The notes beneath the pieces are model-generated. The model searched no databases. It saw only the letters and a program-made list of their open reading frames with translations, and was not told the DNA's origin. 63,641 nt of DNA from an uncultured Bacteroides sp. (lineage in GTDB: Bacteria; Bacteroidota; Bacteroidia; Bacteroidales; JACABE01), in assembly GCA_964646395.1 (NCBI GenBank), contig CAZYEM010000001.1, forward strand, positions 1 through 63,641, in the 5' to 3' direction. The translations under genes were made by a program, and so were the position numbers. Positions 1,386 to 23,702 of the stretch are shown here, one piece after another; position 1 is the first letter of the stretch; each line of letters starts with the position of its first letter.

Positions 1386-1577
1386 ATGAAAAAATATTCA
1401 CTTTGGACGATTGAACACGAAAGTGTTTATATGGTAATGGCATATAAAGTAAAAGACACCAATAGCAGTAAAGAAGTAGATAAATGGCTAGATGAAAGTC
1501 TTGACAATGGTGCATCCTTTTATAGAGAAGAAAACGAAGTAAATGCAAATTATATTCAATTATTTCAAAATTATTAA
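1386..1577 (+). CDS. hypothetical early protein (63 aa)
   Basis: ATG ORF, co-oriented and tightly packed with its neighbours. Confidence 0.45.
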   Translation: MKKYSLWTIEHESVYMVMAYKVKDTNSSKEVDKWLDESLDNGASFYREENEVNANYIQLFQNY

Positions 1578-1578
1578 T

Positions 1579-1743
1579 ATGAAAAATAAACTATACAAAA
1601 TAGCTTTTTATATCCTTTGCTTTATGCTCGGATGCCTGATATTAATTAGCTTGGCAATGCCTGAAAATGGCAAAATATATGCCGTAATTATAGCCATAAT
1701 ATCGGTAACTTTTTTAACAATATTAAAATTTGATGAAAATTAA
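1579..1743 (+). CDS. small membrane protein (54 aa, two hydrophobic helices)
   Basis: The ATG at 1579 lies 1 nt after the upstream stop. The sequence MKNKLYKIAFYILCFMLGCLILISLAM...YAVIIAIISVTFLTIL has two TM-like segments. Confidence 0.45.
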   Translation: MKNKLYKIAFYILCFMLGCLILISLAMPENGKIYAVIIAIISVTFLTILKFDEN

Positions 1744-1785
1744 TTTGCTTAATCAAAATAATATAATTAACTTTAATTTGCTATA

Positions 1786-1941
1786 ATGAAAAAGACCGAC
1801 CACATACGCAACCAAATTAGGGCAATAGAACGCCAAATTACGCTAGGCAAATTTAAAAACATATATGCCACGCAAAACAAGTTAAAAACCCTTAAAATAA
1901 GGCTAGAACAGGCAAAACAATATGAATTTTTAGCACAATAA
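1786..1941 (+). CDS. hypothetical small basic protein (51 aa)
   Basis: Hand-translated ORF MKKTDHIRNQIRAIERQITLGKFKN...EFLAQ, below the track cutoff. It fills an otherwise empty gap in the operon. Confidence 0.35.
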   Translation: MKKTDHIRNQIRAIERQITLGKFKNIYATQNKLKTLKIRLEQAKQYEFLAQ

Positions 1942-1968
1942 TTATAAACAAAAAAACAAACAAATCTT

Positions 1969-2469
1969 ATGAAAATTGAATTAAAAAACTTTAAACACTA
2001 TGACCGATTGAGTGAAGAAACTTTATGCTTTGTCGGTAACATTTGGGTAAATGGGATTAAATGTGGATATGCCGAAAATTCGGGTAAAGGTGGATGCAGT
2101 AGTTACCACCACGAAGGAACTGAAATAAGCAGGGAACTAATTAGAGATGCAGAAGGATTTTGTGAATCTAATGGAACTACCTTATGGGATTTTTTAGACC
2201 AATTAGCTTGTGAAATAGCATCCAAAAAAGAAAAGGATGCCATTGCTAAAAAACTAAATAAAGAGATGCAGAAAGCTATTTTAATAGGGATTGATAATGG
2301 CAGTGAAATTGCATACCAAACAATAACCTTTAAATTACCATTGAGAGATATGTGGGAAAAACACCCCGATTTTTTCAAAAAAACTTTGGTTGAAAAACTT
2401 GACAAGTACAAGCCTAAAGGATATAAGCTACTTAATACTAACATACCACAACAATTTTTAAACTTTTAA
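1969..2469 (+). CDS. hypothetical early protein (166 aa)
   Basis: ATG ORF, co-oriented with the operon. No motif recognised. Confidence 0.55.
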   Translation: MKIELKNFKHYDRLSEETLCFVGNIWVNGIKCGYAENSGKGGCSSYHHEGTEISRELIRDAEGFCESNGTTLWDFLDQLACEIASKKEKDAIAKKLNKEMQKAILIGIDNGSEIAYQTITFKLPLRDMWEKHPDFFKKTLVEKLDKYKPKGYKLLNTNIPQQFLNF

Positions 2470-2479
2470 ATTAAATTTT

Positions 2480-2653
2480 ATGCAACAAAAATTTCTTACA
2501 ATTTATCCTGATGATTTCAGGAATATAAACGATTGGTATGCAGTATGCGACCAATTAAAAATTGATTACAACGCCCTTGTAATTGATATTTACTACAATA
2601 AAGTGGTATATGAAACACAAAAAGAAACTAACATTTTAGAACAATTAAATTAA
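2480..2653 (+). CDS. hypothetical small protein (57 aa)
   Basis: Hand-translated ORF (MQQKFLTIYPDDFRNINDWYAV...). It is preceded by the same TTAAATTTTATG leader seen before 2659, 2956 and 3228. Confidence 0.35.
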   Translation: MQQKFLTIYPDDFRNINDWYAVCDQLKIDYNALVIDIYYNKVVYETQKETNILEQLN

Positions 2654-2658
2654 ATTTT

Positions 2659-2949
2659 ATGAACGATTACAACGCAACATTATTACAAGATGAACAACGC
2701 TACGAAATGAAGAAAGAATTTAAACTTGAAAGAACTTATGATGCCTATATTACTATTGAAATAGTTGAAAGGAATGGCAGGTACTATGCAGAAGTAGATA
2801 GAAATATAGACGATTTATGGCAAGAAAATGATGAATATGAATGTTGGATTGATGAACCTGATAATTTAATGACTGAAGAAAATTTGAATGAAGAAGAATA
2901 TGATGCAATCATTGAAACATTTATACAATATCTTAAAACTAAAAAATAA
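2659..2949 (+). CDS. highly acidic early protein (96 aa), DNA-mimic candidate
   Basis: By my count 27 D/E against 11 K/R residues. It has acidic runs such as NLMTEENLNEEEYD. Confidence 0.5.
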   Translation: MNDYNATLLQDEQRYEMKKEFKLERTYDAYITIEIVERNGRYYAEVDRNIDDLWQENDEYECWIDEPDNLMTEENLNEEEYDAIIETFIQYLKTKK

Positions 2950-2955
2950 AAATTT

Positions 2956-3216
2956 ATGAGATTTAATTTAACATTTGAAAGCCACACAAATTTAACACCA
3001 ACTTGCAAAACTTATATTAAAAACAATATAAATCCAACATTTTGGAATGATGATGAAGAAGTATATTCTTTATCATATACCCTTGAAATGCTTGAAGAAG
3101 AAATTGCATTAAACTTTGGAAACGAAATTTTTGGAATAACCAACAACGACATTGATTTGCTTAAAAAATTAAGTGATGAAAATGTAGATTATATAACCTT
3201 ATACAATAAACTATAA
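2956..3216 (+). CDS. acidic hypothetical early protein (86 aa)
   Basis: ATG ORF, co-oriented, with acidic stretches (WNDDEEVY, LEMLEEE). Confidence 0.5.
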   Translation: MRFNLTFESHTNLTPTCKTYIKNNINPTFWNDDEEVYSLSYTLEMLEEEIALNFGNEIFGITNNDIDLLKKLSDENVDYITLYNKL

Positions 3217-9793: not shown

Positions 9794-12667
9794 ATGAAAA
9801 TATTATATCTAATGTCGCATATCTCAACGGGCGGTATGCCTCAATTTGTACTTAAACGTATTCAAACTTTACTTGACTATGCTGAATCGTTTGAAATTTT
9901 TGTTGTGGAATACGAGGATTATGGAAAGTTATTCCCGGTACAAAGGGATCAAATAATCTCTTTATTGGGTAATAACTTTTATAGTCTTGATAGCGACAAA
10001 ATGCGAGCTATGGATATAATTAGGGATAACGGAATAGATATTGTTCATTTGGATGAAATGCCAGAATCAATGGGCAATGACACACTTTTTAATGAATTGT
10101 ATTGCAATGATAGGACTTGGCGCATAGTAGAAACTTGTCATAACTCTAATTTTAGACCTCTTGATAGTAAACGATACCATCCTGATATGTATGCTTTTTG
10201 CACCTCTTGGCACGAAGATATATTTGCAGGGATGGATAGTAAGTTTGTAACCATACCTTACCCAATAGATTTAAAGCTTAATTTATGGATAGAAAAAATA
10301 CACGCTAAGAAGGATTTAGGCATGGATTTAAAGAAGAAGCATGTTATAAATGTAGGGCTTTGGACTTCGGGCAAGAATCAAGCTGAAGGGTTAGAAATTG
10401 CTCGTAAGTACCCTGATATGATGTTTCATTTTATCGGCAATCAAGCGGGGAACTTTATGGACTATTGGGAGCCACTAATGAAGGATTTACCTAGCAATGT
10501 GAAAGTGTGGGGGGAAAGGACTGATATATCTACCTTTATGTCTGCGGCTGATATTTTTATGTTTAATTCTACTTGGGAGCTAAATCCATTGGTACTTCGT
10601 GAAGCTATTGGTTACAAACTGCCCATTATTGCCCGTAATTTGCCTCAATATGATGGTATGTATGATAAGTATATTAATCCAATAGATACTGATTTAAGTA
10701 CCTTAGAATGTAATTACAACGTACCTACCGATAACAATTCATTGATTTTTGGATTAAGGCATGAAGAAGCCTATTTAAAGTTACTTGAACTACCAATTAA
10801 GGAGCAAAAGCCTATTATAATACAACATTTTGTAGATAATCCATACTTGGAGATTAAAGGAATTAATGTTAGTGCTAAAAAAGATAAGGATTCTGTATCA
10901 ATTGTTTTAGCCCACCCTAATAACGATTTCAGGAAACAACTGCTTAAAAATTGCTTATCTAGTTTAAACACGAATATCATTTTGTCTGCGAATTTTCCAA
11001 TAGAGGAAGATGCACAAGAGCTTTGTGATTATGTTATTTATACAAAAGAGAATCCTTTGTTGTTTAAGAGTGAATTTGCTAAATACAATGTGGCATATTA
11101 TCATTGGTTTACAAATAAAAAAGGAGAAAAAGAGTACCAATTATTTGAAAAAGAACATGGGTATTGCGTGTATACCTTAATGCGTAATGGAATAGAATTG
11201 GCTAAAAAACTAGGCTATAAGAAGGTAAACATAATCAATTACGACTACCAGCTTACTAAAGCAACAATAAACAACAATTTAAAGGAATTAGATACAAATG
11301 ATTTTGTAGTCTATAAATACACTAACCTGTCTTATGAAGAAGATTCATATTGCTCTGCTTTTTTATCAGCCAAAACAGATGCTATCTTATCATTTGTAAC
11401 CAAATTTAAAGACAAAAAAGATTACTACACAAATGGCACATCTTTCAATATACTTGAAGTTAAGTTCTATAACTTTTTAAAAGAAAACAACTACAAGGTT
11501 AAAGAGTTGTTAATGGCTGACTTGAAAAAGGATAACAAAGTTGACATTGAAGGAATAGACTATACAAATGATGTCCAACGAGATAAGGTTCTTTTAGACA
11601 AAAGATTTTATGTTGAATTTTACGAAAATGGTAATTGTGTCTATAATAATCATTTAGATGTTAATAATTGGGTAAAACTAAATAGACAATGGTTTACTGA
11701 ATGGGAGGTTAAAATATGGGATCAAGGTAATTTGATATTTGAAAACAAGCTAAACCTTGAAAGCAAGAGAGTCTTTATAACGCTTGAAAGTAAATCACTA
11801 GGGGACACTTTAGCTTGGATGCCATATGCTTTGGAGTTTAAAAAGAAACATAATTGCCATGTCATTGTATCTACTTTCTGGAATCATATGTTTGATTACC
11901 CTGAATTAGAATTTGTAAGTCCGGGTGATGTGGTTCAAAACGTATATGCTTTATACAGAGTCGGGTGGTTTTATGATGAAAATAAAGAACCTGAAGTGCC
12001 TCATACAATTTCAATGCAAAAGGCTGCTACTAACATACTAGGGTTAGAGTACAAGGAGGTAAGACCTAGATTAAAGATAAAACCTGTTGAAAAAATTAAG
12101 CAAGTAGTCATTGCTATACATTCTACCGCACAAGCTAAATATTGGAATAATCCAAAAGGATGGCAAGAAGTGGTAGACTATTTGATTAGCAAAGGATATG
12201 TGGTTAAACTTATATCCAAAGAAGGCGTTGACTATATGGGCAATATAGCCCCAAATGGCGTAGTTGTCCACCCGAATGGTAGTATTGAGTCAGTTATGGA
12301 AGAAATGCTTAAATCGGAGTTCTTTATAGGTATAGGGAGCGGTTTAAGTTGGCTATCTTGGTCTTTAAATATCCCAACCGTTATTATTAGTGGTTTTTCT
12401 GAACCTTTTGCTGAGATGGAAGATTGTATAAGAGTATCTGCACCTCAAGGAAAGTGTAGTGGTTGCTTTAATAGGCATAGATTAAACGCAGGAGATTGGA
12501 ATTGGTGTCCTGATCATAAAGGGACTGAAAGACAATTTGAATGCACTAAATCAATTACTGCACAAATGGTTATAGATAAAATAAAAGATTTTATGGGCAA
12601 GATCCATCAATGGCAACTATTGGGGAAAACTGCGCCATCTAACAATTTCCATCACCAGATTCAATAA
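9794..12667 (+). CDS. three-domain glycosyltransferase: N-terminal GT-B (GT4-like, EX7E), central unknown domain, C-terminal TibC/Aah-like (BAHT family) protein O-glycosyltransferase domain
   Basis: The N-terminal domain has KKHVINVGLWTSGKN and STWELNPLVLREAIGYKLPIIA, which carries the EX7E motif. In the C-terminal domain, EWEVKIWDQGNLIF and VFITLESKSLGDTLAWMPYALEFKKKHNCHV resemble the TibC/Aah N-terminal beta-domain and the TLGDxxAWxxYAExF segment. A CX2CX13CX11C cluster (C888, C891, C905, C917; nt 12455-12544) resembles the BAHT iron-finger. Confidence 0.7.
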   Translation: MKILYLMSHISTGGMPQFVLKRIQTLLDYAESFEIFVVEYEDYGKLFPVQRDQIISLLGNNFYSLDSDKMRAMDIIRDNGIDIVHLDEMPESMGNDTLFNELYCNDRTWRIVETCHNSNFRPLDSKRYHPDMYAFCTSWHEDIFAGMDSKFVTIPYPIDLKLNLWIEKIHAKKDLGMDLKKKHVINVGLWTSGKNQAEGLEIARKYPDMMFHFIGNQAGNFMDYWEPLMKDLPSNVKVWGERTDISTFMSAADIFMFNSTWELNPLVLREAIGYKLPIIARNLPQYDGMYDKYINPIDTDLSTLECNYNVPTDNNSLIFGLRHEEAYLKLLELPIKEQKPIIIQHFVDNPYLEIKGINVSAKKDKDSVSIVLAHPNNDFRKQLLKNCLSSLNTNIILSANFPIEEDAQELCDYVIYTKENPLLFKSEFAKYNVAYYHWFTNKKGEKEYQLFEKEHGYCVYTLMRNGIELAKKLGYKKVNIINYDYQLTKATINNNLKELDTNDFVVYKYTNLSYEEDSYCSAFLSAKTDAILSFVTKFKDKKDYYTNGTSFNILEVKFYNFLKENNYKVKELLMADLKKDNKVDIEGIDYTNDVQRDKVLLDKRFYVEFYENGNCVYNNHLDVNNWVKLNRQWFTEWEVKIWDQGNLIFENKLNLESKRVFITLESKSLGDTLAWMPYALEFKKKHNCHVIVSTFWNHMFDYPELEFVSPGDVVQNVYALYRVGWFYDENKEPEVPHTISMQKAATNILGLEYKEVRPRLKIKPVEKIKQVVIAIHSTAQAKYWNNPKGWQEVVDYLISKGYVVKLISKEGVDYMGNIAPNGVVVHPNGSIESVMEEMLKSEFFIGIGSGLSWLSWSLNIPTVIISGFSEPFAEMEDCIRVSAPQGKCSGCFNRHRLNAGDWNWCPDHKGTERQFECTKSITAQMVIDKIKDFMGKIHQWQLLGKTAPSNNFHHQIQ

Positions 12668-13196
12668 CAACACCAACACTTGTATTGATTACTTGACTTG
12701 AGAATGTTACATAATAAGGTCCTGGACCTAATGAAGAAAATCCATCTATACAGGCAGTATTATATTCAGAATCTTCTATACGCATATAATTGTCAAGGTT
12801 AGTAGCATCTGCATAATAAACCAATATATCGTATGTACCTATTTGTGTAGTGTAACCTGTTGTGCCATTACCTATATCTAATGGGAATGAAGCACCTGTA
12901 ATACTAACTCCATTAACTGTAACGTTTGTTATAGTTCCTGTAAAGAAATTATTTGTAATGTATAAAGTGGCTTCATTATTTTGTAAATCTTGTTTTACAA
13001 CTAATTGATTATCTGCTTTTGCTGCAAAAGAAGGATATGAGGGGTTTACAGTTACATACGTATTACAAGCAGACTTTGTAGCCATTTTGTTGGTAGAGGG
13101 TATAGTAGTTTTTGCACTAAAGTATCCTTGAGACACTCCACTGATTAAGCTATTAAAAGATACACCTTGATTATTTGCTAAGTCACTATATGCCAT
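12639..13196 (-). CDS. hypothetical virion/fibre-associated protein (185 aa)
   Basis: It is the last gene of the leftward late block, directly after a fibre gene. It is Ser/Thr/Asn-rich and beta-type in composition. The 3-prime 29 nt overlap the convergent GT gene. Confidence 0.5.
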   Translation of the reverse strand: MAYSDLANNQGVSFNSLISGVSQGYFSAKTTIPSTNKMATKSACNTYVTVNPSYPSFAAKADNQLVVKQDLQNNEATLYITNNFFTGTITNVTVNGVSITGASFPLDIGNGTTGYTTQIGTYDILVYYADATNLDNYMRIEDSEYNTACIDGFSSLGPGPYYVTFSSQVINTSVGVVIESGDGNC

Positions 13197-13198: not shown

Positions 13199-14725
13199 TT
13201 ATTTTAATTTAGCTTCTAATTCTGCAATACGTTTTTCTAATGCTGCTATTTTTAATGTATGAACATCCATGTAATTTACGGATAACTTTTCACCACCTGA
13301 AACTGCCTCTGGAAGATATGATTGCACTTGTTGAGCCGAATAACCATATCTTACTGCATTGTTATCATCATCTGTTCTAGTAAATTTAATTACATCTATT
13401 GGTAAGTCTATTGATGGATTTGTTTCTAATACATTCTTAAATCTTATATCTGAACTTTCAAAAAATGCAGCAGCAGTTAGATTAGAACCGCTAATTGTTA
13501 CTCCTGTATTTGCTGTTGCACTATTAGATGTACCATTGGCTGTAAGCACAGCTCCTGCAGTTGTTGGAGAAATAGAATTAAATCCAGTTCCATTTACCCC
13601 ACTTGTGCCTGAAGAACCATTGCCTCCGTTTGCACCTGAAGTACCTGACGAACCCGAAACACCACTTGTACCATTACCACCTTGCGCGCCACTTGTACCT
13701 GACGAACCGGCACCTCCGTTTACTCCTGAAGAACCTGATGAGCCAGAAACGCCGCTTGTACCTGACGAGCCATTTGCGCCAGATGTGCCACTAATACCAG
13801 CCGTTCCGTTTACTCCACTTGTTCCAGAAGATCCGTTATTCCCATTTACACCGCTTGTGCCTGAAGATCCGTTATTCCCATTTACACCGCTTGAACCGCT
13901 TGAGCCACTTGTTCCGTTCACTCCGCTTGAGCCGCTTGAGCCGCTTGAACCGCTTGAACCGCTTGAGCCACTTGTACCATTTGCGCCAGATGTGCCATTT
14001 ATTCCCGATGTGCCATTTGCCCCCGAAGTCCCTGAACTACCATCGCCACCACTAGCACCGGCTAGGTTTACTAACCATGCATTGTATGTGCCTGAACCAA
14101 CTGTTGTGATTGGCGCACCAAATACTAAACTGCCTGTGCCGTTGTTATAAGATGTTACAACTGATTCTTGATAGTTGCTAGGATTAAAAGATATGATAAC
14201 TGTTTGACTAGGACTATAAGCTAATCCAACGCCGACAGTAATAGTTCCAGCATTGCCTAATGTGAATGAAGTAGCTGATGATGTTAAATATCTGTCCCCG
14301 CTAATGCCGCTTGTACCTGAAGTACCAGTAGTTCCTGAAGTTCCAGTAGTACCGCTTGTACCGGTAGTTCCTGAAGATCCTGATGAACCTGAAGATCCTG
14401 AAGATCCTGACGAGCCAGAAGATCCTGATGTTCCCGTAGTACCACTTGAGCCTGACGAGCCAGAAGATCCACTACTACCACTTGATCCAGAAGATCCACT
14501 ATTACCACTAGTACCTGAAGTACCCGTAGTACCACTTGATCCATAAATAGGTATATTTAATACATTGCTACTAAAAGTAGCCGGTCCAGTTGTGCCAAAT
14601 GTGGTTAAGCTAATTGGTAGTTGATAATCCACATTAGGGGTTGCAGTTGCAAAACCACTTGTACCAACTTGCTTTATTATGCCTGATACATTAGGTATTT
14701 CACTAAGGACTGTATTTTTGCTCAT
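13199..14725 (-). CDS. collagen-like tail fibre with C-terminal intramolecular-chaperone (peptidase S74-like) domain
   Basis: Two uninterrupted Gly-X-Y tracts of 28 and 53 triplets. The C-terminus is SDIRFKNV...YGYSAQQVQSYLPEAV...LKIAALEKRIAELEAKLK, typical of endosialidase-chaperone domains. Confidence 0.8.
   Translation of the reverse strand: MSKNTVLSEIPNVSGIIKQVGTSGFATATPNVDYQLPISLTTFGTTGPATFSSNVLNIPIYGSSGTTGTSGTSGNSGSSGSSGSSGSSGSSGSSGTTGTSGSSGSSGSSGSSGSSGSSGTTGTSGTTGTSGTTGTSGTSGISGDRYLTSSATSFTLGNAGTITVGVGLAYSPSQTVIISFNPSNYQESVVTSYNNGTGSLVFGAPITTVGSGTYNAWLVNLAGASGGDGSSGTSGANGTSGINGTSGANGTSGSSGSSGSSGSSGSSGVNGTSGSSGSSGVNGNNGSSGTSGVNGNNGSSGTSGVNGTAGISGTSGANGSSGTSGVSGSSGSSGVNGGAGSSGTSGAQGGNGTSGVSGSSGTSGANGGNGSSGTSGVNGTGFNSISPTTAGAVLTANGTSNSATANTGVTISGSNLTAAAFFESSDIRFKNVLETNPSIDLPIDVIKFTRTDDDNNAVRYGYSAQQVQSYLPEAVSGGEKLSVNYMDVHTLKIAALEKRIAELEAKLK
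13583..14059 (-). repeat. collagen-like tract (53 Gly-X-Y triplets, proline-free)
   Basis: I counted the triplets GAS GGD GSS GTS GAN ... GVN GTG (aa 223-381 of the 508-aa fibre). The degenerate 9-nt DNA periodicity creates long shadow ORFs on the opposite strand. Confidence 0.85.
14291..14542 (-). repeat. collagen-like tract (28 Gly-X-Y triplets, proline-free)
   Basis: The triplets GSS GTT GTS ... GIS GDR cover aa 62-145 of the 508-aa fibre. Confidence 0.85.
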
Positions 14726-14965: not shown

Positions 14966-15292
14966 CTATGGGTTAGAAAAAGGTAGCGGAAGTACCACAA
15001 TAGGAGGGTTAACTTGATTCTCTATTTGAGCATCTAAATTAAGGTCTAAAGCTGCAACATCTATTGAAGCATCAAGCCAACCACAAACGATTTCATAAGT
15101 TAAGTCCTCATAAGGGATAAAGTTTGTAACATCATCCTTTGAGAAGGATTGAGTACTATATACACTTGCGGTGTATTCTTTATCATTTACTACTTCATTT
15201 GCGATTCTTGACCAATGTGCAACCACAACAAAGTCAGTTAAATTTCCGTCTTGTGGAACGCAGTCTAATTGATTGATAAAAAAATACTTCAT
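14966..15292 (-). CDS. hypothetical protein (108 aa)
   Basis: ATG ORF, co-oriented, lying between the homing endonuclease and the fibre genes. Confidence 0.5.
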   Translation of the reverse strand: MKYFFINQLDCVPQDGNLTDFVVVAHWSRIANEVVNDKEYTASVYSTQSFSKDDVTNFIPYEDLTYEIVCGWLDASIDVAALDLNLDAQIENQVNPPIVVLPLPFSNP

Positions 15293-15298: not shown

Positions 15299-15988
15299 TT
15301 AAATTTTATATTTCCAAATACATTTTCTATGTGTTTTACCTAAGCCATTGCAACATTTCCATATATTGCTTTCATTATATCCATTTTTAGCAGCTTCTTT
15401 CTTAGAAGACCACTCTTTTATAAAGTTCCCATCTAAATCAAATTGTAAAATTGCTCGTTTAATCTTTGATTCAGACATTTTCTTTTTTCTTTCTTCGCTA
15501 TATTTCTGACCATAATTAGCACTATTAACACCAGAATATTTTAACCTTTTATACATTTTTTGTTCTTCAGTCCTTTTCTTACCAGTATTGGCTAAAGATA
15601 TTTTTCTTTTCATTTCCTCAGTAACAACTCTATTCTTCCAATTTGTATTACCCTTTTGAGAATTACTCATTTTTTGTCTTGCAGCATCTGATAATTTATA
15701 ACCATCAAATCCTTCGCCTCCATTAGTTAAATTACAAAGCGTACCTGTTTTCAAGTCCCTTCTGCCATATAATGATATAAACTCTCTTTCTTTGGCTTGT
15801 GCTTCCTCCCAAGTCAATTCTTGAATTAGAATTTCAACTTCAAATTCAGTCTTGTTTGTAATCCTTTTCCATTGAGTACTTCTATCGTATGTAGAATATG
15901 CTCTCTTATATTCATCATTAGTATTGCTTATGCCAATATAAAAAGGCATATTTGTATCAATTCTTATATGTCTATAAATGTAAGCCAT
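15299..15988 (-). CDS. free-standing GIY-YIG homing endonuclease with NUMOD3 repeats and a NUMOD1-like C-terminal DNA-binding domain
   Basis: The N-terminus is YIYRHIRIDTNMPFYIGIS (GIY...YIG). Repeated basic motifs follow (ARQKMSNSQKG, EEMKRKISLANTGKK, EERKKKMSESK). The C-terminus is ILQFDLDGNFIKEWSSKKEAAK...CIWKYK. Confidence 0.8.
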   Translation of the reverse strand: MAYIYRHIRIDTNMPFYIGISNTNDEYKRAYSTYDRSTQWKRITNKTEFEVEILIQELTWEEAQAKEREFISLYGRRDLKTGTLCNLTNGGEGFDGYKLSDAARQKMSNSQKGNTNWKNRVVTEEMKRKISLANTGKKRTEEQKMYKRLKYSGVNSANYGQKYSEERKKKMSESKIKRAILQFDLDGNFIKEWSSKKEAAKNGYNESNIWKCCNGLGKTHRKCIWKYKI

Positions 15989-16003: not shown

Positions 16004-17410
16004 TTATTTAGCTGCAATCATTGCTTTTAATTCTTCTATTTGTGCTTGTTGCTCTTGAATACACTTTGTCAAAATAGCAAACTCCATTCCAACCTTTAAA
16101 CCTAATGAATCTTCATACCCACTTATTAAGTTTCCGTCATCATCATATTTTCTTGTGTCATTTTGATATACAAAAGATGGGAATACCTCCTGCATTTCTT
16201 GTGCTATAAATCCTATGTGCTTGTCCTCATTACCTATCAAATTAAAATTTACCACATTCAACCTCATTATGTCATAAAGTTTAGGTGTAGCAGATACGAT
16301 GTTTTCTTTTAATCTTCTATCAGATGCAAGTGTACCATAAGAACCATTAGTGTTTACTATATTTCCATTACCATAAACAAACATTCTGTCTGACCCATCT
16401 GTGACTGCTATGTAATGATAATTAGATGCATTATTACTTGTACTTCCTAATACAGTGATTATTGCAACATTATCAGTAGCGCTTGTATTTGTATTTCTAA
16501 ATTCGTGATACGCACCATTTACTCCAATATAACTACCGTTATTACTTGCCTTAATAAAACCCCCCGATGTGATTCTCATTCGTTCGGTAGGTCCAGTATA
16601 AAAACTTAAAAATCCAGTACTAGTAAATGATTGTTGCATTCTAAACTCTTCAGTTTGAGCATCACTATATAATCTTGGACCATTAGTTGATTCATTAAAT
16701 CTTAAACTTGATTGATATGTAGATTCAGCTTTAAATATTAAATTTTGATATGCACCAATATAAACATCTAATTTACCTGCAGGGCTACTCGTTCCGATTC
16801 CAACGTTACCTGAAGCGTCAAGACGCATTTTAGCAGTAGGAGTAGTTGAGCCACTATTTGATGTTCTAAAATCAATATAACCTCCATCTGCTCCTGTTGT
16901 TGTTTGCTCAATATGAATAGCACCTAAAGAACCTCTATTGCTTTGACCCGTAAATCTTCCACCTGCCGTTGCAACGTCTAATGCTTGTTTAGAAATAACT
17001 TGTCCATTGGTATCTATTAAAAAAGAACCTCCTGTTTGTGTAAATGTAGCAGCACCGGTATAAGCTAATGCTAAGCCAGATGTTCCATTAGGCATAATAT
17101 TTAATCCTGCATCTGTTCCTTCTGCAGCAGTTGAAATTGTCCATAAAGGAGTACCAGCAGTTAATTTAAAATCTAACGCTTTAATTTGATTAGATGCATT
17201 TCTACCAGACATTCTTATAACTGTCTGTACTGCATCTTGCGTAAGACCACTAAACGTAGCACTTGTACCACTTAAAGCACCAGTAAGGTTAGTAGCTCCT
17301 GTTACTTGTAGTTTAAATGAGGCATTGGCTGCTGCACCTATACCCACATTATTAGAGGAGTCTGTAAAGACGCAATTATTTAAAAAACCGGTATCCCTTG
17401 TTTTGCCCAT
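16004..17410 (-). CDS. tail fibre protein with C-terminal intramolecular-chaperone (S74-like) domain (468 aa)
   Basis: It has NVGIGAAANASFKLQVTG and GNVGIGTSSPAGKLDV repeats and the ERMRITSGG module. The C-terminus is SDRRLKENI...HIGFIAQEMQEVFPSFV...IEELKAMIAAK. Confidence 0.75.
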   Translation of the reverse strand: MGKTRDTGFLNNCVFTDSSNNVGIGAAANASFKLQVTGATNLTGALSGTSATFSGLTQDAVQTVIRMSGRNASNQIKALDFKLTAGTPLWTISTAAEGTDAGLNIMPNGTSGLALAYTGAATFTQTGGSFLIDTNGQVISKQALDVATAGGRFTGQSNRGSLGAIHIEQTTTGADGGYIDFRTSNSGSTTPTAKMRLDASGNVGIGTSSPAGKLDVYIGAYQNLIFKAESTYQSSLRFNESTNGPRLYSDAQTEEFRMQQSFTSTGFLSFYTGPTERMRITSGGFIKASNNGSYIGVNGAYHEFRNTNTSATDNVAIITVLGSTSNNASNYHYIAVTDGSDRMFVYGNGNIVNTNGSYGTLASDRRLKENIVSATPKLYDIMRLNVVNFNLIGNEDKHIGFIAQEMQEVFPSFVYQNDTRKYDDDGNLISGYEDSLGLKVGMEFAILTKCIQEQQAQIEELKAMIAAK

Positions 17411-17415: not shown

Positions 17416-18933
17416 TTATCTATTAATAAGTGAGTTTATTGTTTGTTGTTGTTCGTTTACTTTTTGGTTTAGTTCTTGGATTGCTTTAACTAATAAAGAT
17501 ACCATATTTGCATAATAAATGGCATCTGGAGTTTTATCTTCTGCATATTGTACAAATTCAACCAAGCCTAAATCATTTATTTCCTCTGCTATTAAACCTG
17601 CATATTGTGTATCTCCATCATTTTTGCCTTTATAATAAACAGGTCTTAATTGCATTACCTTCTCTAAGCCTTTATCATAATTTCTTACATCGGTTTTATA
17701 TTTTATTGATGAAGTTGACCTTTGTAAAGTTCCGTCATTAGCAAATATTGCATTTGCCCCTGCTCCTGTTGTATTGTTATAAGGTGAATTTGGTCTTGTT
17801 CCTGTACTTGTTAATCCATCATTTCTTACATAAAACAAATCTTGAACATTTGAGTTTGCTATCCCTAATGCAAAAGCTGTACTATCCGATGTTGCTGCAG
17901 TTATTTGTAGCCTAAAATTAGAATAACCAGTTGAGCCTATCCCAACCATACCCCCCGATGTGATTACCATTCTTGCAGCAGCAGCAGTTTCATCATATAT
18001 TATATAACTATTTGAAAAGTCAAAAGATAATCCAGTAATATATGATTTAGCAGTACTTTTAAAAACAGCATAAGCATTTGCATTTGCAATTGAAGATTCT
18101 AAAACTAATGTTTGAGTATTTGCTGCGCCACCTAAAACGTGCAACTTTTGACTTGGACTACTCGTTCCAATTCCAACGTTACCACCTAATGGTTGTAATA
18201 ATAAATTATAAGCAGCCGTATTTCCATCTGTTCTTTGGCTTTGTAAATATGTATTACCATTTGTTAAAACGTCTGCCACCATTCCATAAACGCCACCATT
18301 CAATAACTGAAATTTTGCAGTTGATGTTCCTAATGCAGCCGGTGAGCCTGAATTATTACTTCCATAAACTATAATACCACCACTTGCCGTTATATTACCC
18401 GAAAAATTAGCAGCACCAGTATTGGCTAATGTAAATAATGTAGCAGTATCTGCTTGGTTAAGAATTGTAAGATTTGTTGAGCCAGTATATAAATAATTTA
18501 TAGAGCCGCTTGCAGCAGCAAAAAATCTATTTGCACCAATAAAATTATATACACCACCCGCAAAAGTTACACCACCCGTCAAAGTTCCACCCGCTAAAGG
18601 TAAGTAAGCAGATAGGTTACTTGTAAGGGCTATTGTACCACTTGCATCTGGTAATGTATATGTTCTATCTACTGATAAGGCAGCTGGTTGAATAAACCCA
18701 TTTGAACCATTTCTTAAATTTAATACACCAAATCCTGAACCAGTTAAATCTCTTGATAACGAGGCCAATAAACCATAACCAGTTGGTTGAATAATAAAAT
18801 TATCTGCATTTACATTTCCAGTAACTTGTAATTTATAACTACCAGAAGCTGCTCCTCCTATACCTACATTATAAGATGAATTTACTGCTATTGCATTTGA
18901 TAAAATTGCGTTACCTGTATTTAATGATGGCAT
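17416..18933 (-). CDS. tail fibre protein with C-terminal intramolecular-chaperone (S74-like) domain (505 aa)
   Basis: It has NVGIGGAASGSYKLQVTG and GNVGIGTSSPSQKLHV repeats and an ARMVITSGG module. The C-terminus is SSIKYKTDV...YAGLIAEEINDLGLVEFV... Confidence 0.75.
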   Translation of the reverse strand: MPSLNTGNAILSNAIAVNSSYNVGIGGAASGSYKLQVTGNVNADNFIIQPTGYGLLASLSRDLTGSGFGVLNLRNGSNGFIQPAALSVDRTYTLPDASGTIALTSNLSAYLPLAGGTLTGGVTFAGGVYNFIGANRFFAAASGSINYLYTGSTNLTILNQADTATLFTLANTGAANFSGNITASGGIIVYGSNNSGSPAALGTSTAKFQLLNGGVYGMVADVLTNGNTYLQSQRTDGNTAAYNLLLQPLGGNVGIGTSSPSQKLHVLGGAANTQTLVLESSIANANAYAVFKSTAKSYITGLSFDFSNSYIIYDETAAAARMVITSGGMVGIGSTGYSNFRLQITAATSDSTAFALGIANSNVQDLFYVRNDGLTSTGTRPNSPYNNTTGAGANAIFANDGTLQRSTSSIKYKTDVRNYDKGLEKVMQLRPVYYKGKNDGDTQYAGLIAEEINDLGLVEFVQYAEDKTPDAIYYANMVSLLVKAIQELNQKVNEQQQTINSLINR

Positions 18934-18945: not shown

Positions 18946-19689
18946 TTATTCGTTACGTTTTTTTCTTTTAACTACCTTTTCTGGATGTTTATACTTCCAA
19001 ATATACCCACATACTTCTTTTAATTTACCTTGACAACACTTTGTAATATTTGTTGATGTCCCATATTGCTTAACAGCATCAATTATTCCTTCCCATTCTT
19101 TGATAAAGTTACCGTTTAAATCGTATTGTAAAATAATGGTTTTTTTACATTTAGACATCCTATTCTTTGTTTCATCAGTAATAACACGATTTTTGTTATT
19201 TTCAGATATTTTAATCCTATGTTCCAAAGACATTGGATTTTTATGCTTTATGCCAATTCTTGATTCTTTATGCTTTTTAAGCATTTCTGGGTCTTGCAAT
19301 CTTTTTTTGTGATATTCTGATAGCCTTTTTTTACATTCTTCAGTATGTTTTTTACCTTTATGAGAATCTGACATCTTTTTTGCTACTTCTTTAGTTATAA
19401 TTTTATTCAAACAGCCATCTCCGCCATCTGTTAAATTAACCAAACATCCTGTTCCTAAATCAACTCTACCATACAATTTAATAAATTCTATTTCTTTTGC
19501 CCTTGCGCTGTCATCATCAAGATTATCAAACAAAATATCAACTTCGTAATTCGTATTTTTTACAATATTATGCCAATGTTTGTTTCTATTATCTTTTCCA
19601 TAAGCCCTATAGTAATTTTTAGCACTACCAATACCTATGTAAAACGGTTCGTTTTTGTCTAATCTGATATGTCTATAAACGTATGGCAT
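18946..19689 (-). CDS. free-standing GIY-YIG homing endonuclease (paralogue of 15299..15988)
   Basis: The N-terminus is YVYRHIRLDKNEPFYIGIG. NUMOD3-like repeats follow (AKKMSDSHKGKKHTEE, SLEHRIKISENNKN). The C-terminus is ILQYDLNGNFIKEWEGIIDAVK...GYIWKYK. The start overlaps the stop of the upstream fibre gene (TAATG). Confidence 0.8.
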   Translation of the reverse strand: MPYVYRHIRLDKNEPFYIGIGSAKNYYRAYGKDNRNKHWHNIVKNTNYEVDILFDNLDDDSARAKEIEFIKLYGRVDLGTGCLVNLTDGGDGCLNKIITKEVAKKMSDSHKGKKHTEECKKRLSEYHKKRLQDPEMLKKHKESRIGIKHKNPMSLEHRIKISENNKNRVITDETKNRMSKCKKTIILQYDLNGNFIKEWEGIIDAVKQYGTSTNITKCCQGKLKEVCGYIWKYKHPEKVVKRKKRNE

Positions 19690-22600
19690 TATTTTGTAGC
19701 TACAATTTTATGAAGTTCGTCTATTTCTGCTTTTAACTCTTGTATTGCTTTTACTAAAACTGCAGTTAATTGTCCATAAGATAATCCCTTCATACCTCTA
19801 TTGTCTGTTGATACTAATTCTTTAATTACTTCTTCAACTTCCTGTGCTATAAAACCAACTTGTTCTAAATTATCTTCTTTCATTTTATAACTTCTTGGCT
19901 TTAACTTTAATACTGCATCTAAGCCATATTCAATATCCTTAACATCTTTTTTAATAGAAATATCTGATGCATCAGTCCATACCCCTGCACTTGATAAAGT
20001 TCCTTGATTACTACCATTCCACCATGCCATTGTGCTACCATTCATATAGCATTGTCTATAATTACCACCATCATAAACTGCCATACCAATTGCATCAAGT
20101 GCTAATCTTGCACTTGCAGAATTTGTTCCAATTCCCATTAATACACTACCCCCCGATGTGATTCTCATTCTTTCTGAATTGCCTGTTCTTATACTAAAAT
20201 CACTTGCACTTGTTGTTCCTACAAAAGAATCACTACTAACTCCACACTCAAGCATCACTGTTGTACCAGCAGGATTTGTTATTTTTACACCTTTCGTTCC
20301 ATCTACTGCTGCATTTGCAACCGCTAAATGTAATAAAGCACTTGGACTTGCAGTTCCAATTGCAACTGATCCTCCTAATGGTTGTAATAAAATAGGGTAA
20401 TTAATATTACTATTATTAGCATCTTTAACTTGTAACCACATACCATAAGATGCACCATTATAACCACCGATATTTAATTGTGGCCCTAAATTACCCGTAA
20501 TTGAAAATAAGTTATTTGTATCAGCAGTCATTGATGGATTACCAGAAGTTCCAAATACACTTAATCTTGCTATGTCATTTGCATTATTAACTCTTACACT
20601 ACTTGAGAATGTAGCAGCACCAGTAGTGCCTATTGTAAGTCTTGCAGTAGCATTTGTGCCTAAAATTAATTCTTTTGAATTTGGGGTATATATTTCTAAT
20701 CCTTCAGCACCCGTTGCACTTATTATTTGTGCCATAAAATTAGTTCCACTTATACCAGCAGATGCACCTTTTTGTCTAACTGCAACTGCATATAAATCAG
20801 CAGAATATCCAGTTATAGTATTATTTGCAGATGTTGAATTTGTGCCAACAACAGTTAATGCTTGATTACTATTAAACGTAGCACTTGTACCAGCTAAAGC
20901 TCTAGATACTAAAGTAACAGTTGTTCCATCATCTGTAATTGCACTATCTCCTATTGATGCGGATGCGGTGAACTTTGGTATGGTATTAATTGTACCACTA
21001 CCAGCAATACCACTATAAGCTCCTACTGCATAAGAATAAGCATATACTACTACTATATCATTTACTTGACAAGCAGTAGCTAATATTATACTTGTACCAT
21101 TGGTCGCAGTATATTCTGATTGAGCTAAATTAGAACCATTATAAAATACATCTATTAACCCTTGAGTATATGTAACTGCAAATGTGGTCTGACCAGCAGT
21201 CGCAGTAAATGTAGTTATTGTTCTAAGTGCATTGGTTGGTAAAAATGCAGTCAAATAGTTATCAATTTCAACAATCTGACCAACTGTTAAAGCATCTGTT
21301 AATACCACAGTAGTACCATTGGTTGCCGTATAATCCACGCCATTAACCAATTTAACTCCATTTACAAACACATCTACCATTCCTACGCTATAACCATTGG
21401 TTACAGTGAAAGTTGTTTGACTTGCTGTTGCAGTAAATACTTGAACTGCTCTTGCAGAAGTGGTTGCGTTACCCGAAGTGCCTGATGAACCAGAAGTACC
21501 TTGCGCCCCTGATGTACCTGAAAGACCGCTAGTACCTGACGTACCAGTTTCGCCTGACGAACCAGTGCCGCCAGATGTACCAGAGCTACCGCTAGTTGCA
21601 CTTGTTCCAGAAGAACCGGAAGTACCAGTTTCCCCTGATGAACCGGTTGCGCCAGATGTTCCACTTGATCCGCTAGTACCTGATGAACCAGAAGTGCCTG
21701 CTATTTGACCTACTGAAGTTATTACATAAGAATAGTTTGTTGATCCTTCGGTATACCAATTTATATTGTGAGTTCCTGATCCAAAATTTGTAACGTAAAT
21801 CTTTACAATAATGCGATCTGTATCAAGAATCGCAGTTGTTGGAAGCACTAAGTCTGTAAGTACCTCAACCGGTGTTGAAGCATCTAAAAAGTCTACTTCT
21901 GAAGCATTTGTAGGTATTATTGTACCATAACCAACGCCCGCAGAGTTTGCTAATTCTATTGTTACATATGCTTCAAAAGCGTTACCATTTGCTTGTTTTA
22001 GAAAATGTAAATGAAATCTTTGTACTCCGCCCGGTATAATGGTAAATCCTAATTCTGGAGTTAGAAATGAACTAACTAAAGCAGTTGATCCTGAACTTAC
22101 CCCAGAAACAGTTACAGTTTGCTGTGCTGCTGTTGAAGGTTCGGTAGCTAATACCTTATAAGGAGATACATCAGAAGATGCACTTTGGTTAAAATAATAA
22201 GTCTGTCCTGCTGAAATGCCGCTTACTCCGCTTGTTCCTGCTGTTCCTGAAGTACCCGTTGTTCCACTTGTGCCTGTTGTACCACTTGTACCGCTTGAAC
22301 CAGAGGTGCCTGCCGTTGCAGAAGTACCTGATGTACCTGCTGTTGCAGAAGTACCAGAAGTACCGCTTGAACCATCGCCACCACTCGCGCCATCCAAGTT
22401 CACTGTCCATGCGCTATAAGTACCACTACCCACTGTTCTAGTAGGGGCTAAAAATGTTAAAGAACCTGTATTTGCATCATATGATACTACCTCGCACTCT
22501 TGAAAGTTTGAAGCATCATAAACTATAATTATTGATTGAGCAGGGCTATATCCCAATAGTGTTCCTATTGTTATAGTACCTGCATTGCCTAAAGTAAATG

Positions 22601-23702
22601 TTGTAGTAGATGTTGTTCTATATCTATCTCCTGAAAGACCTGATGTACCTGTTGTACCCGAAGTGCCACTAGTTCCAGTTGTACCGCTAGTTGCGCTTGT
22701 ACCTGATGAACCACTAGTACCTGTTGTGCCTGAAGTACCATTTATACCTGAAGTACCTGACGAACCGCTTGAACCACTGCTTCCACTTGTTGCAGATGTT
22801 CCGGAGGAGCCGGAAGTACCACTAGAACCGCTTGAACCACTTGAGCCAGATGAACCGCTAGAGCCACTTGAACCTGAGCTTCCTGAACTACCAGAAGTAC
22901 CAGTAGTACCGCTAGTACCACTTGTAGCAGAGCTACCACTTGAACCAGAGCTTCCACTTGTACCAGAAGAACCATCACCACCAGAAGCTCCATCTAAGTT
23001 CACTACCCAATTAGAGAATGTTCCACCGCCTACAACTCTATTAGGATCACCAAATACTAATTCTCCTGTAACAACATTATAAGAAACTACCTCACATTCT
23101 TGAAAGTGAGTATTATCATGTACTACAATAATTGATTGAGCAGGAGAGTATGATAAGCCGGGAGAAACCATAAGATATCCACCAGTTCCTAATGTAAAAA
23201 TAGATACAGATATTGTATAATACTTATCCCCACCAATACCTGAAGTACCAGTTGTTCCAGAAGTTCCTGCGGTGCCTGCCGTCCCTGATGAACCAGAAGA
23301 AGAAACATAGCTAGATACAAAATTATCTATCTCTACATTATCGCCTACTTTTAAAGGATTATTAAGTATTACATTAAATCCATCTGTGGCTGTAAAATCG
23401 CTTGGGAATAATTTTACTCCATTAACAAAAACATCCACCATCCCATTATCATATCCGCTAGGAATATAAAAAGTAGTTTGTCCTGCTGTTGCTACAAAAT
23501 TATTTACAAGTCTACCTGCCGTACCTGCAAAACCAGAAGTACCAGCAGAGCCGGAAGTACCAGCAGTGCCAGATGAACCAGAAGTACCGGCTGTTCCTGA
23601 AGTAATATTACCAACAGAATCTACAACACCATTGGCGGCAATTAACACACCATTTAATTCTCTTATTTTTACTTCACCCGTAAAAAGACCTTGTATTGCC
23701 AT
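19689..23702 (-). CDS. large modular collagen-like tail fibre (1337 aa) with S74-like C-terminal chaperone domain
   Basis: It has at least five Gly-X-Y tracts. A roughly 60-aa F(V/T)ATAGQTTF...VDVFVNGVKL domain occurs three times. A roughly 77-aa GD(R/K)Y...W.VNL(D/A)GASGGDGSSG domain occurs twice. The C-terminus is SDISIKKDV...QVGFIAQEVEEVIKELV... Confidence 0.8.
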   Translation of the reverse strand: MAIQGLFTGEVKIRELNGVLIAANGVVDSVGNITSGTAGTSGSSGTAGTSGSAGTSGFAGTAGRLVNNFVATAGQTTFYIPSGYDNGMVDVFVNGVKLFPSDFTATDGFNVILNNPLKVGDNVEIDNFVSSYVSSSGSSGTAGTAGTSGTTGTSGIGGDKYYTISVSIFTLGTGGYLMVSPGLSYSPAQSIIVVHDNTHFQECEVVSYNVVTGELVFGDPNRVVGGGTFSNWVVNLDGASGGDGSSGTSGSSGSSGSSATSGTSGTTGTSGSSGSSGSSGSSGSSGSSGSSGSSGTSGSSGTSATSGSSGSSGSSGTSGINGTSGTTGTSGSSGTSATSGTTGTSGTSGTTGTSGLSGDRYRTTSTTTFTLGNAGTITIGTLLGYSPAQSIIIVYDASNFQECEVVSYDANTGSLTFLAPTRTVGSGTYSAWTVNLDGASGGDGSSGTSGTSATAGTSGTSATAGTSGSSGTSGTTGTSGTTGTSGTAGTSGVSGISAGQTYYFNQSASSDVSPYKVLATEPSTAAQQTVTVSGVSSGSTALVSSFLTPELGFTIIPGGVQRFHLHFLKQANGNAFEAYVTIELANSAGVGYGTIIPTNASEVDFLDASTPVEVLTDLVLPTTAILDTDRIIVKIYVTNFGSGTHNINWYTEGSTNYSYVITSVGQIAGTSGSSGTSGSSGTSGATGSSGETGTSGSSGTSATSGSSGTSGGTGSSGETGTSGTSGLSGTSGAQGTSGSSGTSGNATTSARAVQVFTATASQTTFTVTNGYSVGMVDVFVNGVKLVNGVDYTATNGTTVVLTDALTVGQIVEIDNYLTAFLPTNALRTITTFTATAGQTTFAVTYTQGLIDVFYNGSNLAQSEYTATNGTSIILATACQVNDIVVVYAYSYAVGAYSGIAGSGTINTIPKFTASASIGDSAITDDGTTVTLVSRALAGTSATFNSNQALTVVGTNSTSANNTITGYSADLYAVAVRQKGASAGISGTNFMAQIISATGAEGLEIYTPNSKELILGTNATARLTIGTTGAATFSSSVRVNNANDIARLSVFGTSGNPSMTADTNNLFSITGNLGPQLNIGGYNGASYGMWLQVKDANNSNINYPILLQPLGGSVAIGTASPSALLHLAVANAAVDGTKGVKITNPAGTTVMLECGVSSDSFVGTTSASDFSIRTGNSERMRITSGGSVLMGIGTNSASARLALDAIGMAVYDGGNYRQCYMNGSTMAWWNGSNQGTLSSAGVWTDASDISIKKDVKDIEYGLDAVLKLKPRSYKMKEDNLEQVGFIAQEVEEVIKELVSTDNRGMKGLSYGQLTAVLVKAIQELKAEIDELHKIVATK
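21465..21705 (-). repeat. collagen-like tract in the 1337-aa fibre (approximate limits)
   Basis: The region translates as GTSGSSGTSGSSGTSGATGSSGETGTSGSS...GAQGTSGSSGTSG. Limits are estimated from the extent of the shadow ORF. Confidence 0.6.
22212..22391 (-). repeat. collagen-like tract (about 20 triplets, with Gly-to-Ala interruptions)
   Basis: Covers aa 438-497: GAS GGD GSS GTS GTS ATA GTS GTS ATA GTS ... GIS. Confidence 0.7.
22623..22991 (-). repeat. collagen-like tract (about 41 triplets, three ATS interruptions)
   Basis: Covers aa 238-360: GAS GGD GSS GTS GSS GSS GSS ATS GTS ... GLS GDR. Confidence 0.7.

Follow-up and report, generated by a model that had tools for sequence, protein, structure and literature searches.

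Proline-free collagen-like tail fibres and a neighbouring TibC/Aah-type glycosyltransferase in an uncultured phage: candidate glycosylated fibre stalks

The stretch of DNA analysed here (hereafter the window: all 63,641 nucleotides of contig CAZYEM010000001.1, assembly GCA_964646395.1, from an uncultured Bacteroides sp.) has a guanine-plus-cytosine (GC) content of about 33% and represents a phage genome segment. Two of its tail fibres, of 508 and 1337 residues, carry long collagen-like Gly-X-Y tracts devoid of proline, and a gene convergent with the fibre operon encodes a 957-residue glycosyltransferase with a domain of the TibC/Aah type, the protein O-heptosyltransferases of bacterial autotransporters. 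On balance, the reading favoured here is that the tracts are glycosylated, proline-free collagen-type fibre stalks and that the TibC-type enzyme is their modifier. The parts of this reading differ in strength: the tracts very probably form a collagen-type trimeric stalk, and the fibres are probably glycosylated by the 957-residue enzyme; whether the tracts themselves are the main acceptor is evenly poised, and it is doubtful that the sugar is needed for the fibres to fold. The two fibre genes and their tracts are located as follows.

13199..14725 (-), 508-residue tail fibre gene (open reading frame (ORF) and translation)
14291..14542 (-), Gly-X-Y tract 1 of the 508-residue fibre: residues 62-145, 28 triplets, 0 Pro
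13583..14059 (-), Gly-X-Y tract 2 of the 508-residue fibre: residues 223-381, 53 triplets, 0 Pro, Asn at Y 15 times
19689..23702 (-), 1337-residue tail fibre gene, with five Gly-X-Y tracts
23508..23597 (-), tract of the 1337-residue fibre: residues 36-65, 10 triplets
23223..23294 (-), tract of the 1337-residue fibre: residues 137-160, 8 triplets
22623..22991 (-), tract of the 1337-residue fibre: residues 238-360, 41 triplets; Gly-to-Ala 'ATS' at 259, 304 and 337
22203..22391 (-), tract of the 1337-residue fibre: residues 438-500, 21 triplets; 'ATA' at 453 and 462, 'AGQ' at 498
21465..21698 (-), tract of the 1337-residue fibre: residues 669-746, 26 triplets; 'ATS' at 702

A preliminary description of this DNA had reported two unbroken runs in the shorter fibre, one of 28 triplets and one of 53 (recovered at residues 62-145 and 223-381), five or more tracts of about 8 to 41 triplets in the longer one (five were found, of 10, 8, 41, 21 and 26), Gly-to-Ala interruptions of the ATS and ATA kinds, and a complete lack of proline, and in these respects it was accurate. 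The glycine register is perfect in both tracts of the 508-residue fibre, 53 consecutive in-register glycines being expected by chance with P ~1e-64, and the breaks in the tracts of the 1337-residue fibre are exclusively Gly-to-Ala replacements that keep the frame ('ATS' four times, 'ATA' twice and one terminal 'AGQ'). Gly-X-Y tracts of such length were not found in the other reading frames of the window. Both fibres match the Pfam Collagen family PF01391 far above its cut-off of 27.2 (106.5 and 107.8 bits; E 5.6e-31 for the 508-residue fibre).

The composition of the tracts departs strongly from that of ordinary collagen-like repeats. Across the 187 triplets of both fibres, proline occupies 0 of the 374 X and Y positions against 13.5 expected from its frequency of 3.6% in the 12,602 residues of the window's other proteins (P ~1e-6), and charged residues occupy 12 against 92 expected; outside the tracts, the same two fibres contain 2.9% Pro and 22% Ser plus Thr. 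The classical stabilisers of the triple helix, namely proline or hydroxyproline at X and Y and pairs of Lys or Arg with Asp or Glu, are thus missing from tracts with no proline and 12 charged residues in 374 positions. Overall, Ser and Thr account for 77% of the X and Y positions and charged residues for 3%. The description of X and Y as almost exclusively Ser, Thr, Asn, Ala and Val holds for the composition, although that wording hides a positional rule: the X position (n = 187) is held by Thr 83 times, Ser 58, Ala 10 and Val 9, and the Y position (n = 187) by Ser 130 times (70%), Thr 16, Asn 16 and Ala 13, such that the typical unit is G-T-S, with Thr mostly at X and Ser at Y.

At the DNA level, the tracts employ mixed codons (all four for Gly and all six for Ser, from both Ser families), and Tandem Repeats Finder reports degenerate arrays with 67-91% match. 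Because synonymous codons are so diverse and the DNA arrays so degenerate, the Gly-X-Y periodicity appears to be selected at the protein level, and recent slippage was rejected as its source on the grounds of codon diversity. Long ORFs on the opposite strand or in other frames of the repeats (e.g., 13359..14150 (+), 'PLVPEEP...') were dismissed as repeat shadows rather than genes.

The tracts are embedded in an architecture of the kind expected for a trimeric stalk. The 508-residue fibre consists, in order, of 61 N-terminal residues, tract 1, a beta-barrel spacer, tract 2, a tip of about 43 residues and an S74-like chaperone, and the 1337-residue fibre also has two beta-barrel spacers, three copies of a second repeat of about 65 residues and a C-terminal S74 domain. 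The modules placed by alignment or profile are listed below.

14039..14299 (-), beta-barrel spacer of the 508-residue fibre, residues 143-229; GDRY...W.VNLAGASGGDG (alignment)
22971..23231 (-), beta-barrel spacer copy 1 of the 1337-residue fibre, residues 158-244 (alignment)
22371..22631 (-), beta-barrel spacer copy 2 of the 1337-residue fibre, residues 358-444 (alignment)
13199..13453 (-), S74-type intramolecular chaperone of the 508-residue fibre, from S425-D-I-R-F-K (alignment to three Pfam-positive S74 domains)
19812..19967 (-), Peptidase_S74 core of the 1337-residue fibre, residues 1246-1297; Pfam PF13884, E 1.4e-13; motif S1246-D-I-S-I-K

The spacer, a unit of about 80 residues, had been noted as a repeated globular domain present once in the shorter fibre and twice in the longer, and its three copies were indeed found there, mutually 53-67% identical. 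An AlphaFold2 model renders it as a six-stranded beta-barrel (mean predicted local distance difference test, pLDDT, 89.4). No PDB entry matched this model at E<0.001 in a fold search; the highest template-modelling score (TMq 0.64) was that of a phage Chi tail-tip chain, and a likeness to the N-terminal barrels of F1/V1 ATPase subunits was set aside as generic. Among predicted viral structures, the domain is seen in proteins named 'Collagen triple helix repeat [uncultured Caudovirales phage]'. A word-indexed protein search with the spacer domain returned one match only; an exhaustive profile search placed it in 1749 protein clusters, and in 123 of the best 150 of these there are 10 or more Gly-X-Y triplets, whose Pro fraction ranges between 0 and 0.35. 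In many clusters from other phages, the domain runs directly into Pro-containing repeats (e.g., ...VNLDGAVGIQG, GAPGKQG), which argues for the Pro-free tracts as an ordinary phage collagen-like stalk of altered composition, not a disordered linker. A PDB sequence search with the whole fibre yielded animal collagens only, by low-complexity matching, and entry 8zxl ('spindlefibril'), a collagen assembly model, was judged irrelevant. The second repeat of the 1337-residue fibre (residues ~66-130, 752-815 and 826-890; ...TATAGQTTF...VDVFVNGVKL...(D/E)(Y/F)TATNG...) is not named by Pfam.

The S74 domain is a C-terminal chaperone of trimeric fibres that nucleates their folding and then cuts itself off. 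All four fibres of the window end in such a domain: PF13884 also matches the 468-residue fibre (E 4.9e-14) and the 505-residue fibre (E 3.7e-6), and the C-terminus of the 508-residue fibre, which the profile does not report at E<0.01, aligns with the other three. A Ser followed by a Lys five residues on is kept in each (SDIRFK at S425, SDISIK at S1246, SDRRLK at S363 and SSIKYK at S408), from which it is predicted that about 83 residues of the 508-residue fibre would be released once the trimer has folded. As judged from sequence and model, modules for trimerisation (S74) and registration (the abutting beta-barrel) therefore stand beside the tracts.

The second component of the proposed system is the 957-residue enzyme, the product of the sole plus-strand gene of its neighbourhood.

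9794..12667 (+), 957-residue multidomain glycosyltransferase gene (Pfam Glycos_transf_1 and Glyco_transf_9; NCBIfam)
10304..10645 (+), GT4-type (Glycos_transf_1) domain, residues 171-284 of the 957-residue protein (Pfam)
11624..12586 (+), TibC/Aah-type protein O-heptosyltransferase domain, residues 611-931 of the 957-residue protein

Residues 611-931 score 261.5 bits against NCBIfam TIGR04414, 'autotransporter strand-loop-strand O-heptosyltransferase' (cut-off 200; profile positions 37-372 of 374), and match the TibC crystal sequence (PDB 4rap) with E 6.7e-53, as against E 0.018 for the lipopolysaccharide (LPS) heptosyltransferases. The catalytic Asp110 of TibC is kept as Asp671 (LGDLL aligned to LGDTL, the D110A crystal sequence differing at that column), and its iron-finger residues Cys339, Cys342, Cys358 and Cys370 are kept as Cys888, Cys891, Cys905 and Cys917; the roles of the Asp and of the four Cys were established for TibC (PMC4358343). 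The alignment starts at TibC residue 52, the N-terminal flattened beta-barrel of TibC spanning residues 1-97, and the Pfam family TibC_1st was hit weakly by the homologue from Microcystis phage Mel-JY01 only (20.5 bits, below the cut-off). TibC and Aah are cytoplasmic enzymes that put many heptoses on Ser, not Thr, of a repetitive adhesin encoded alongside, and TibC also modifies synthetic or free peptides (PMC4358343). Since the enzyme is of a cytoplasmic protein glycosyltransferase type, a phage fibre would be within its reach before assembly. Its neighbours in the window are tail fibres, and no beta-helical autotransporter is encoded there. The TibC-type domain is present in 4 deposited phage records out of 50,697; one of the 4 names it 'methyltransferase FkbM' and three leave it without annotation. 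The 3' end of the enzyme gene overlaps, by 29 bases (12639..12667), the 3' end of a convergent 185-residue ORF (12639..13196 (-)) situated downstream of the 508-residue fibre gene; in most related loci, too, enzyme and fibre genes converge in this way.

The pairing of enzyme and tract composition was examined in viral loci fetched in three sets, with flanks limited to 10 kb: the 79 best loci with homologues of the 957-residue enzyme (set 1), 78 loci that encode close relatives of the spacer domain (set 2), and 79 loci from a Pro-flanked subgroup of the spacer domain (set 3), for which a narrower subgroup alignment was used, the 30-sequence spacer-domain alignment being too diverse for locus retrieval. 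The tracts of set 2 contain 0-5% Pro in all loci and are Ser/Thr-rich in all but one; in 37 of these loci the enzyme lies 0-3.6 kb from the collagen-like ORF, mostly in convergent orientation, with the TibC-like part as the constant element. The tracts of set 3 have median contents of 15% Pro and 30% Ser/Thr, at a median GC of 44.5%, and the enzyme was found in 0 of its 79 loci. After removal of duplicates, and among loci that extend 4 kb or more beyond the fibre on its downstream side, the enzyme is near the fibre in 25 of 31 Ser/Thr-rich loci (at least 60% of X and Y) vs 0 of 20 others (Fisher 3.7e-9, uncorrected for kinship); when only loci with a GC below 0.40 are considered, without the filter for downstream room, the counts are 30 of 55 and 0 of 17.

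The two groups also differ in what stands at X and Y. Tracts associated with the enzyme have Thr at 61% of X and Ser at 70% of Y, whereas tracts without it have Pro (27%) or Ala (26%) at X and Thr (45%) or Gln (27%) at Y, where Ser reaches 3.8%; the Ser-rich Y position of the enzyme-associated tracts fits a Ser-specific enzyme. Low-GC relatives without the enzyme keep Pro at 2-21% or charged residues at 20-25%, so a low GC does not by itself impose G-T-S repeats. Five of these low-GC, enzyme-free loci (L154, L256, L258, L274 and L281) have little Pro and tracts with 20-25% charged residues, which represents a second Pro-poor strategy within the domain family.

Kinship among the loci is a natural concern, and it is lessened by two observations. 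Firstly, 15 of 30 loci with the enzyme have no further neighbouring gene in common with the window. Secondly, the pairing recurs in Microcystis phage Mel-JY01 (190 kb) and in an uncultured phage of 735 kb, both unrelated, where G-T-S collagen-like ORFs lie 1.7 and 3.6 kb, respectively, from a fusion of GT4 and TibC-like domains; these ORFs are without the beta-barrel domain and without S74. In the Mel-JY01 record (PP395634.1; locus L295), the collagen-like gene (635..3052 (+)) is unannotated, and shadow ORFs at 1..651 and 739..2298 (-) ('PLVPEVP...') are annotated as hypothetical; the adjacent GT4-TibC-like fusion, of 1226 residues, is the protein named 'methyltransferase FkbM'.

Taken together, these results suggest a scheme whose biochemical steps are each inferred, and whose footing is the observed sequence features, domain memberships and co-occurrence. 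In two trimeric tail fibres, the thin stalk would be made of the Pro-free, charge-poor (Gly-Thr-Ser)n segments. The C-terminal S74 chaperone would set each fibre in register, with folding proceeding from that end, and would then cleave itself off, as is known of S74 proteins and of collagen zippering, while the beta-barrels of about 80 residues might act as registration nodes between helical segments. In the host cytoplasm, before or during assembly, the TibC/Aah-type domain would put a heptose or a related sugar on fibre Ser residues, the Y-position Ser of the tracts being the likeliest main acceptors. That sugar would then be extended or methylated by the fused GT4 domain, with the eight-gene sugar cluster described below perhaps taking part. 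The resulting glycan may replace Pro and charge pairs as stabiliser, may shield the fibre, or may do both. The boldest form of this proposal is a third way to build a collagen helix, used by a widespread group of aquatic phages: Gly-Thr-Ser triplets, heptosylated at the Y-position Ser by the phage's TibC-type enzyme, would stand in for Pro and charge pairs, and the fibre would need the sugar to fold or to stay folded; it is put forward as speculative.

Several points count against the favoured reading. Ser and Asn at Y are, as seen in host-guest peptides, among the poorer triple-helix formers; this makes a helper more plausible, yet the helix itself less certain. The known substrates of TibC and Aah are beta-helical strand-loop-strand repeats, not collagen helices (PMC4358343). 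A search of the window for HldE-like heptose-activation genes found none. In set 1, a Gly-X-Y ORF lies within 10 kb of the enzyme in 13 of 79 loci and in none of the other 66, where the enzyme mostly follows directly after a Ser/Thr-rich non-collagen fibre of 1,700-3,070 residues that often ends in S74. The enzyme is accordingly linked to fibres in general, and acceptors other than the tracts are possible for it. The comparison itself has two weaknesses: the Ser/Thr-rich and Ser/Thr-poor groups correspond to two clades of the spacer domain, whose loci lack phylogenetic independence, and the Pro-containing loci have a lower average length, within flanks of only 10 kb.

The alternative that survives best, though it is considered unlikely, holds that the tracts are ordinary unglycosylated collagen-like spacers whose lack of proline reflects low GC and a cool habitat, and that the glycosyltransferases act on host LPS or capsule (in superinfection exclusion) or on other virion proteins. 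Precedent exists for each half of it: the phage collagen-like protein EPclA is stable without sugar, with a melting temperature of 42 C and a negative periodic acid-Schiff (PAS) stain (PMC3368898), and glycosyltransferases encoded near the fibre genes of marine phages have been read as modifiers of host O-chains (PMC7029224). In addition, the Pro fraction rises with the GC of the locus (Spearman 0.39 and 0.26), and the flanking trimeric domains and S74 chaperone could hold a weak helix. A mere low-GC effect was nevertheless judged insufficient, as relatives with GC below 0.40 and without the enzyme still use Pro or charges, and proline is missing from the tracts only (0 against 13.5 expected, with 2.9% in the rest of the fibres). 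An action on host LPS also sits poorly with an enzyme domain that falls in the protein-serine heptosyltransferase family and not with the LPS heptosyltransferases, and unglycosylated spacers give no account of the 70% vs 3.8% Ser at Y.

It is also quite unlikely, and somewhat more so, that the 957-residue enzyme glycosylates beta-structured, non-collagen parts (the beta-barrels, the beta-helical stalks of the 468-, 505- and 1337-residue fibres, or the tips) and leaves the tracts unmodified or incidentally modified. This possibility draws on the beta-helix repeats recognised by TibC and Aah (PMC4358343; the NCBIfam name), on the giant non-collagen fibres that most enzyme homologues directly follow, which contain 21-23% Ser plus Thr, and on the 22% Ser plus Thr outside the tracts of the two collagen-like fibres. 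It leaves unexplained why only the G-T-S fibres of one domain family carry the enzyme and why unrelated G-T-S proteins stand by it in Mel-JY01 and the megaphage, and the modification of free peptides by TibC indicates that a folded beta-helix is not obligatory. Lastly, that the tracts are flexible, mucin-like Gly/Ser/Thr linkers, glycosylated or not, with a period of three left over from repeat expansion, is highly improbable: Gly-Ser sequences are typical flexible linkers and the tracts have no Pro and few charges as classical helix stabilisers, yet the glycine register is perfect over 53 triplets despite scrambled synonymous codons and degenerate DNA repeats, the interruptions are only in-frame Gly-to-Ala changes, relatives have Pro-containing collagen repeats at homologous positions, and the proteins are S74 fibres, predicted to be trimeric.

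The preliminary description had gone on to propose the tracts as acceptors for the glycosylation genes of this genome. That proposal gained indirect support from the TibC/Aah-type neighbour, the co-occurrence across loci and the Ser at Y; it is weakened by the presence of the enzyme beside non-collagen fibres as well, and the eight-gene sugar cluster could not be tied directly to the fibres. The analogy that had been drawn with Riftia cuticle collagen and with BclA of the Bacillus anthracis exosporium is sound in principle but does not fit in the details. Both proteins carry O-linked sugars, and glycosylation can stand in for hydroxyproline as a stabiliser; the window fibres, if glycosylated, would likewise be collagen-like helices with O-linked sugar, and they share with these precedents a dedicated glycosyltransferase gene linked to the collagen-like gene, in the window as a convergent neighbour. 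In the precedents, however, Thr is at Y (GPT in BclA) and Pro is abundant, whereas in the window Y is Ser at 70% and Thr is at X.

Other known systems resemble the window in part. EPclA and EPclB, from prophages of E. coli O157:H7, are likewise tail-fibre-related trimers with Gly-X-Y regions flanked by separate trimerisation modules, but their repeats are Pro-rich at X and charged (GPK, GPQ, GER), are PAS-negative and fold without sugar, whereas the window tracts have 0 Pro, 3% charged residues and 77% Ser/Thr (PMC3368898). As collagen-like proteins migrate anomalously even without glycan (PMC3368898), a comparison of apparent and predicted masses would be a weak assay for glycosylation of such fibres. 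The pairing of TibC and Aah with TibA and AIDA-I (PMC4358343; TIGR04414) is matched in the profile score above cut-off and in the kept Asp and four Cys, but the window domain is phage-encoded, is fused to a GT4 domain and a middle region, and would be paired with a phage fibre instead of a beta-helical autotransporter. S74 fibres and spikes such as the K1F endosialidase and the T5 L-shaped fibre (PF13884) have the C-terminal self-cleaving trimerisation chaperone with a Ser...Lys motif that all four window fibres possess; the classic examples fold triple beta-helices, whereas the window chaperone would nucleate a collagen-type helix.

Virus-encoded glycosylation of virion proteins has precedents of its own. 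In mycobacteriophages, phage glycosyltransferases encoded among the structural genes modify virion proteins; unlike the case considered here, the acceptors there are actinophage capsid and tail-tube proteins, the enzymes come from other families, and neither a collagen-like acceptor nor a TibC-type enzyme is known to be involved. Mimivirus encodes collagen-like proteins together with a hydroxylase/glycosyltransferase that acts on them, but it is a eukaryotic giant virus that places glucose on hydroxylysine, so that both chemistry and enzyme family differ. For archaeal viruses, one paper suggests glycosylation of a tail protein, purely from gene proximity. A literature search found no paper that links a TibC-type enzyme to phages or describes glycosylated phage fibres. 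Collagen-like phage stalks, autotransporter protein heptosyltransferases and glycosylated actinophage virions are thus each known separately, and no paper was found that joins them.

If the boldest form of the proposal is true, the window fibres would provide the first collagen-like helices dependent on sugar among bacterial viruses, and would be the first substrates of the TibC/Aah enzyme family other than autotransporters. Should the pairing work as proposed, it would offer a testable rule for when a collagen helix can dispense with proline, extend a virulence-associated enzyme family to phage assembly, and provide an alternative to the host-surface reading of glycosyltransferases encoded next to fibre genes; in many uncultured aquatic phages, host recognition, resistance to proteases and recognition by antibodies may then depend on fibre glycans as well as on fibre sequence. 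It would also point to an easy way of producing sugar-decorated collagen-like materials by recombinant means.

A further source of sugar-related enzymes in the window is an eight-gene cluster between the portal and large terminase genes.

28887..31241, portal gene
31318..36963 (-), eight-gene sugar cluster (Pfam, NCBIfam)
36963..39011, large terminase gene

The cluster encodes GT25-like and GT47-like proteins, an FkbM methyltransferase, an NAD-dependent epimerase/reductase, a Methyltransf_24 protein, GT11, GT2 and a second GT25-like protein. It is a lineage-specific insertion, kept in relatives with at least 65% identity in the large terminase (TerL) and absent from those with at most 54% (loci L080-L137); where it is lacking, the portal gene directly follows the terminase gene. 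It may elaborate the fibre glycan, a link to the fibres that is inferred only. A homologue of its Methyltransf_24 protein is fused to a GT4 module in other phages.

Another phage lineage (L010, 2206..17662, and about 40 similar loci among L007-L079) has a conserved fibre and sugar module comprising, in order, a giant non-collagen fibre of 1,700-3,070 residues, GT4-Methyltransf_24 and TibC-like proteins, a PfkB sugar kinase and a protein of about 900-1,200 residues that begins with a cytidylyltransferase-like domain. These phages thus differ from the window in that genes for a PfkB kinase and a cytidylyltransferase adjoin that of the enzyme, and the module looks like a self-contained unit of sugar activation and transfer beside the fibre.

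The window also encodes a primase/helicase and an M15 endolysin. A search of deposited phages with the TerL protein gave best matches of 29% identity, to Flavobacterium and Cellulophaga podophages, from which a Bacteroidota-like host may be loosely inferred. A near-identity DNA search of deposited phages with 12 kb of the window returned no match, and close uncultured relatives are present in IMG/VR, with TerL identities of up to 100%. The four fibre genes, with products of 508, 468, 505 and 1337 residues, are all on the minus strand, and the two without Gly-X-Y tracts lie among further genes of the fibre region.

14966..15292 (-), DUF7936 small protein
15299..15988 (-), GIY-YIG-type homing endonuclease with NUMOD3 and NUMOD1 motifs (Pfam)
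16004..17410 (-), 468-residue fibre without Gly-X-Y tracts; S74 C-terminus (S363)
17416..18933 (-), 505-residue fibre without Gly-X-Y tracts; S74 C-terminus (S408)
18946..19689 (-), GIY-YIG-type homing endonuclease, a paralogue of the former as judged by eye from its N-terminus

The homing endonuclease genes, interleaved as they are with the fibre genes, could promote exchange of fibre cassettes. The DUF7936 protein is kept beside fibre genes in several relatives (L002, L003, L009, L015 and L017) and may be a fibre assembly or accessory factor. Adjoining the portal gene, at a position conserved in relatives, is a ferritin/Dps-like gene (28400..28885 (-); Pfam Ferritin, E 6.4e-17), an unexpected gene to find beside packaging genes. 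The terminase gene is closely followed downstream by a 103-residue ORF and then by one of 2543 residues (39353..46984 (-)).

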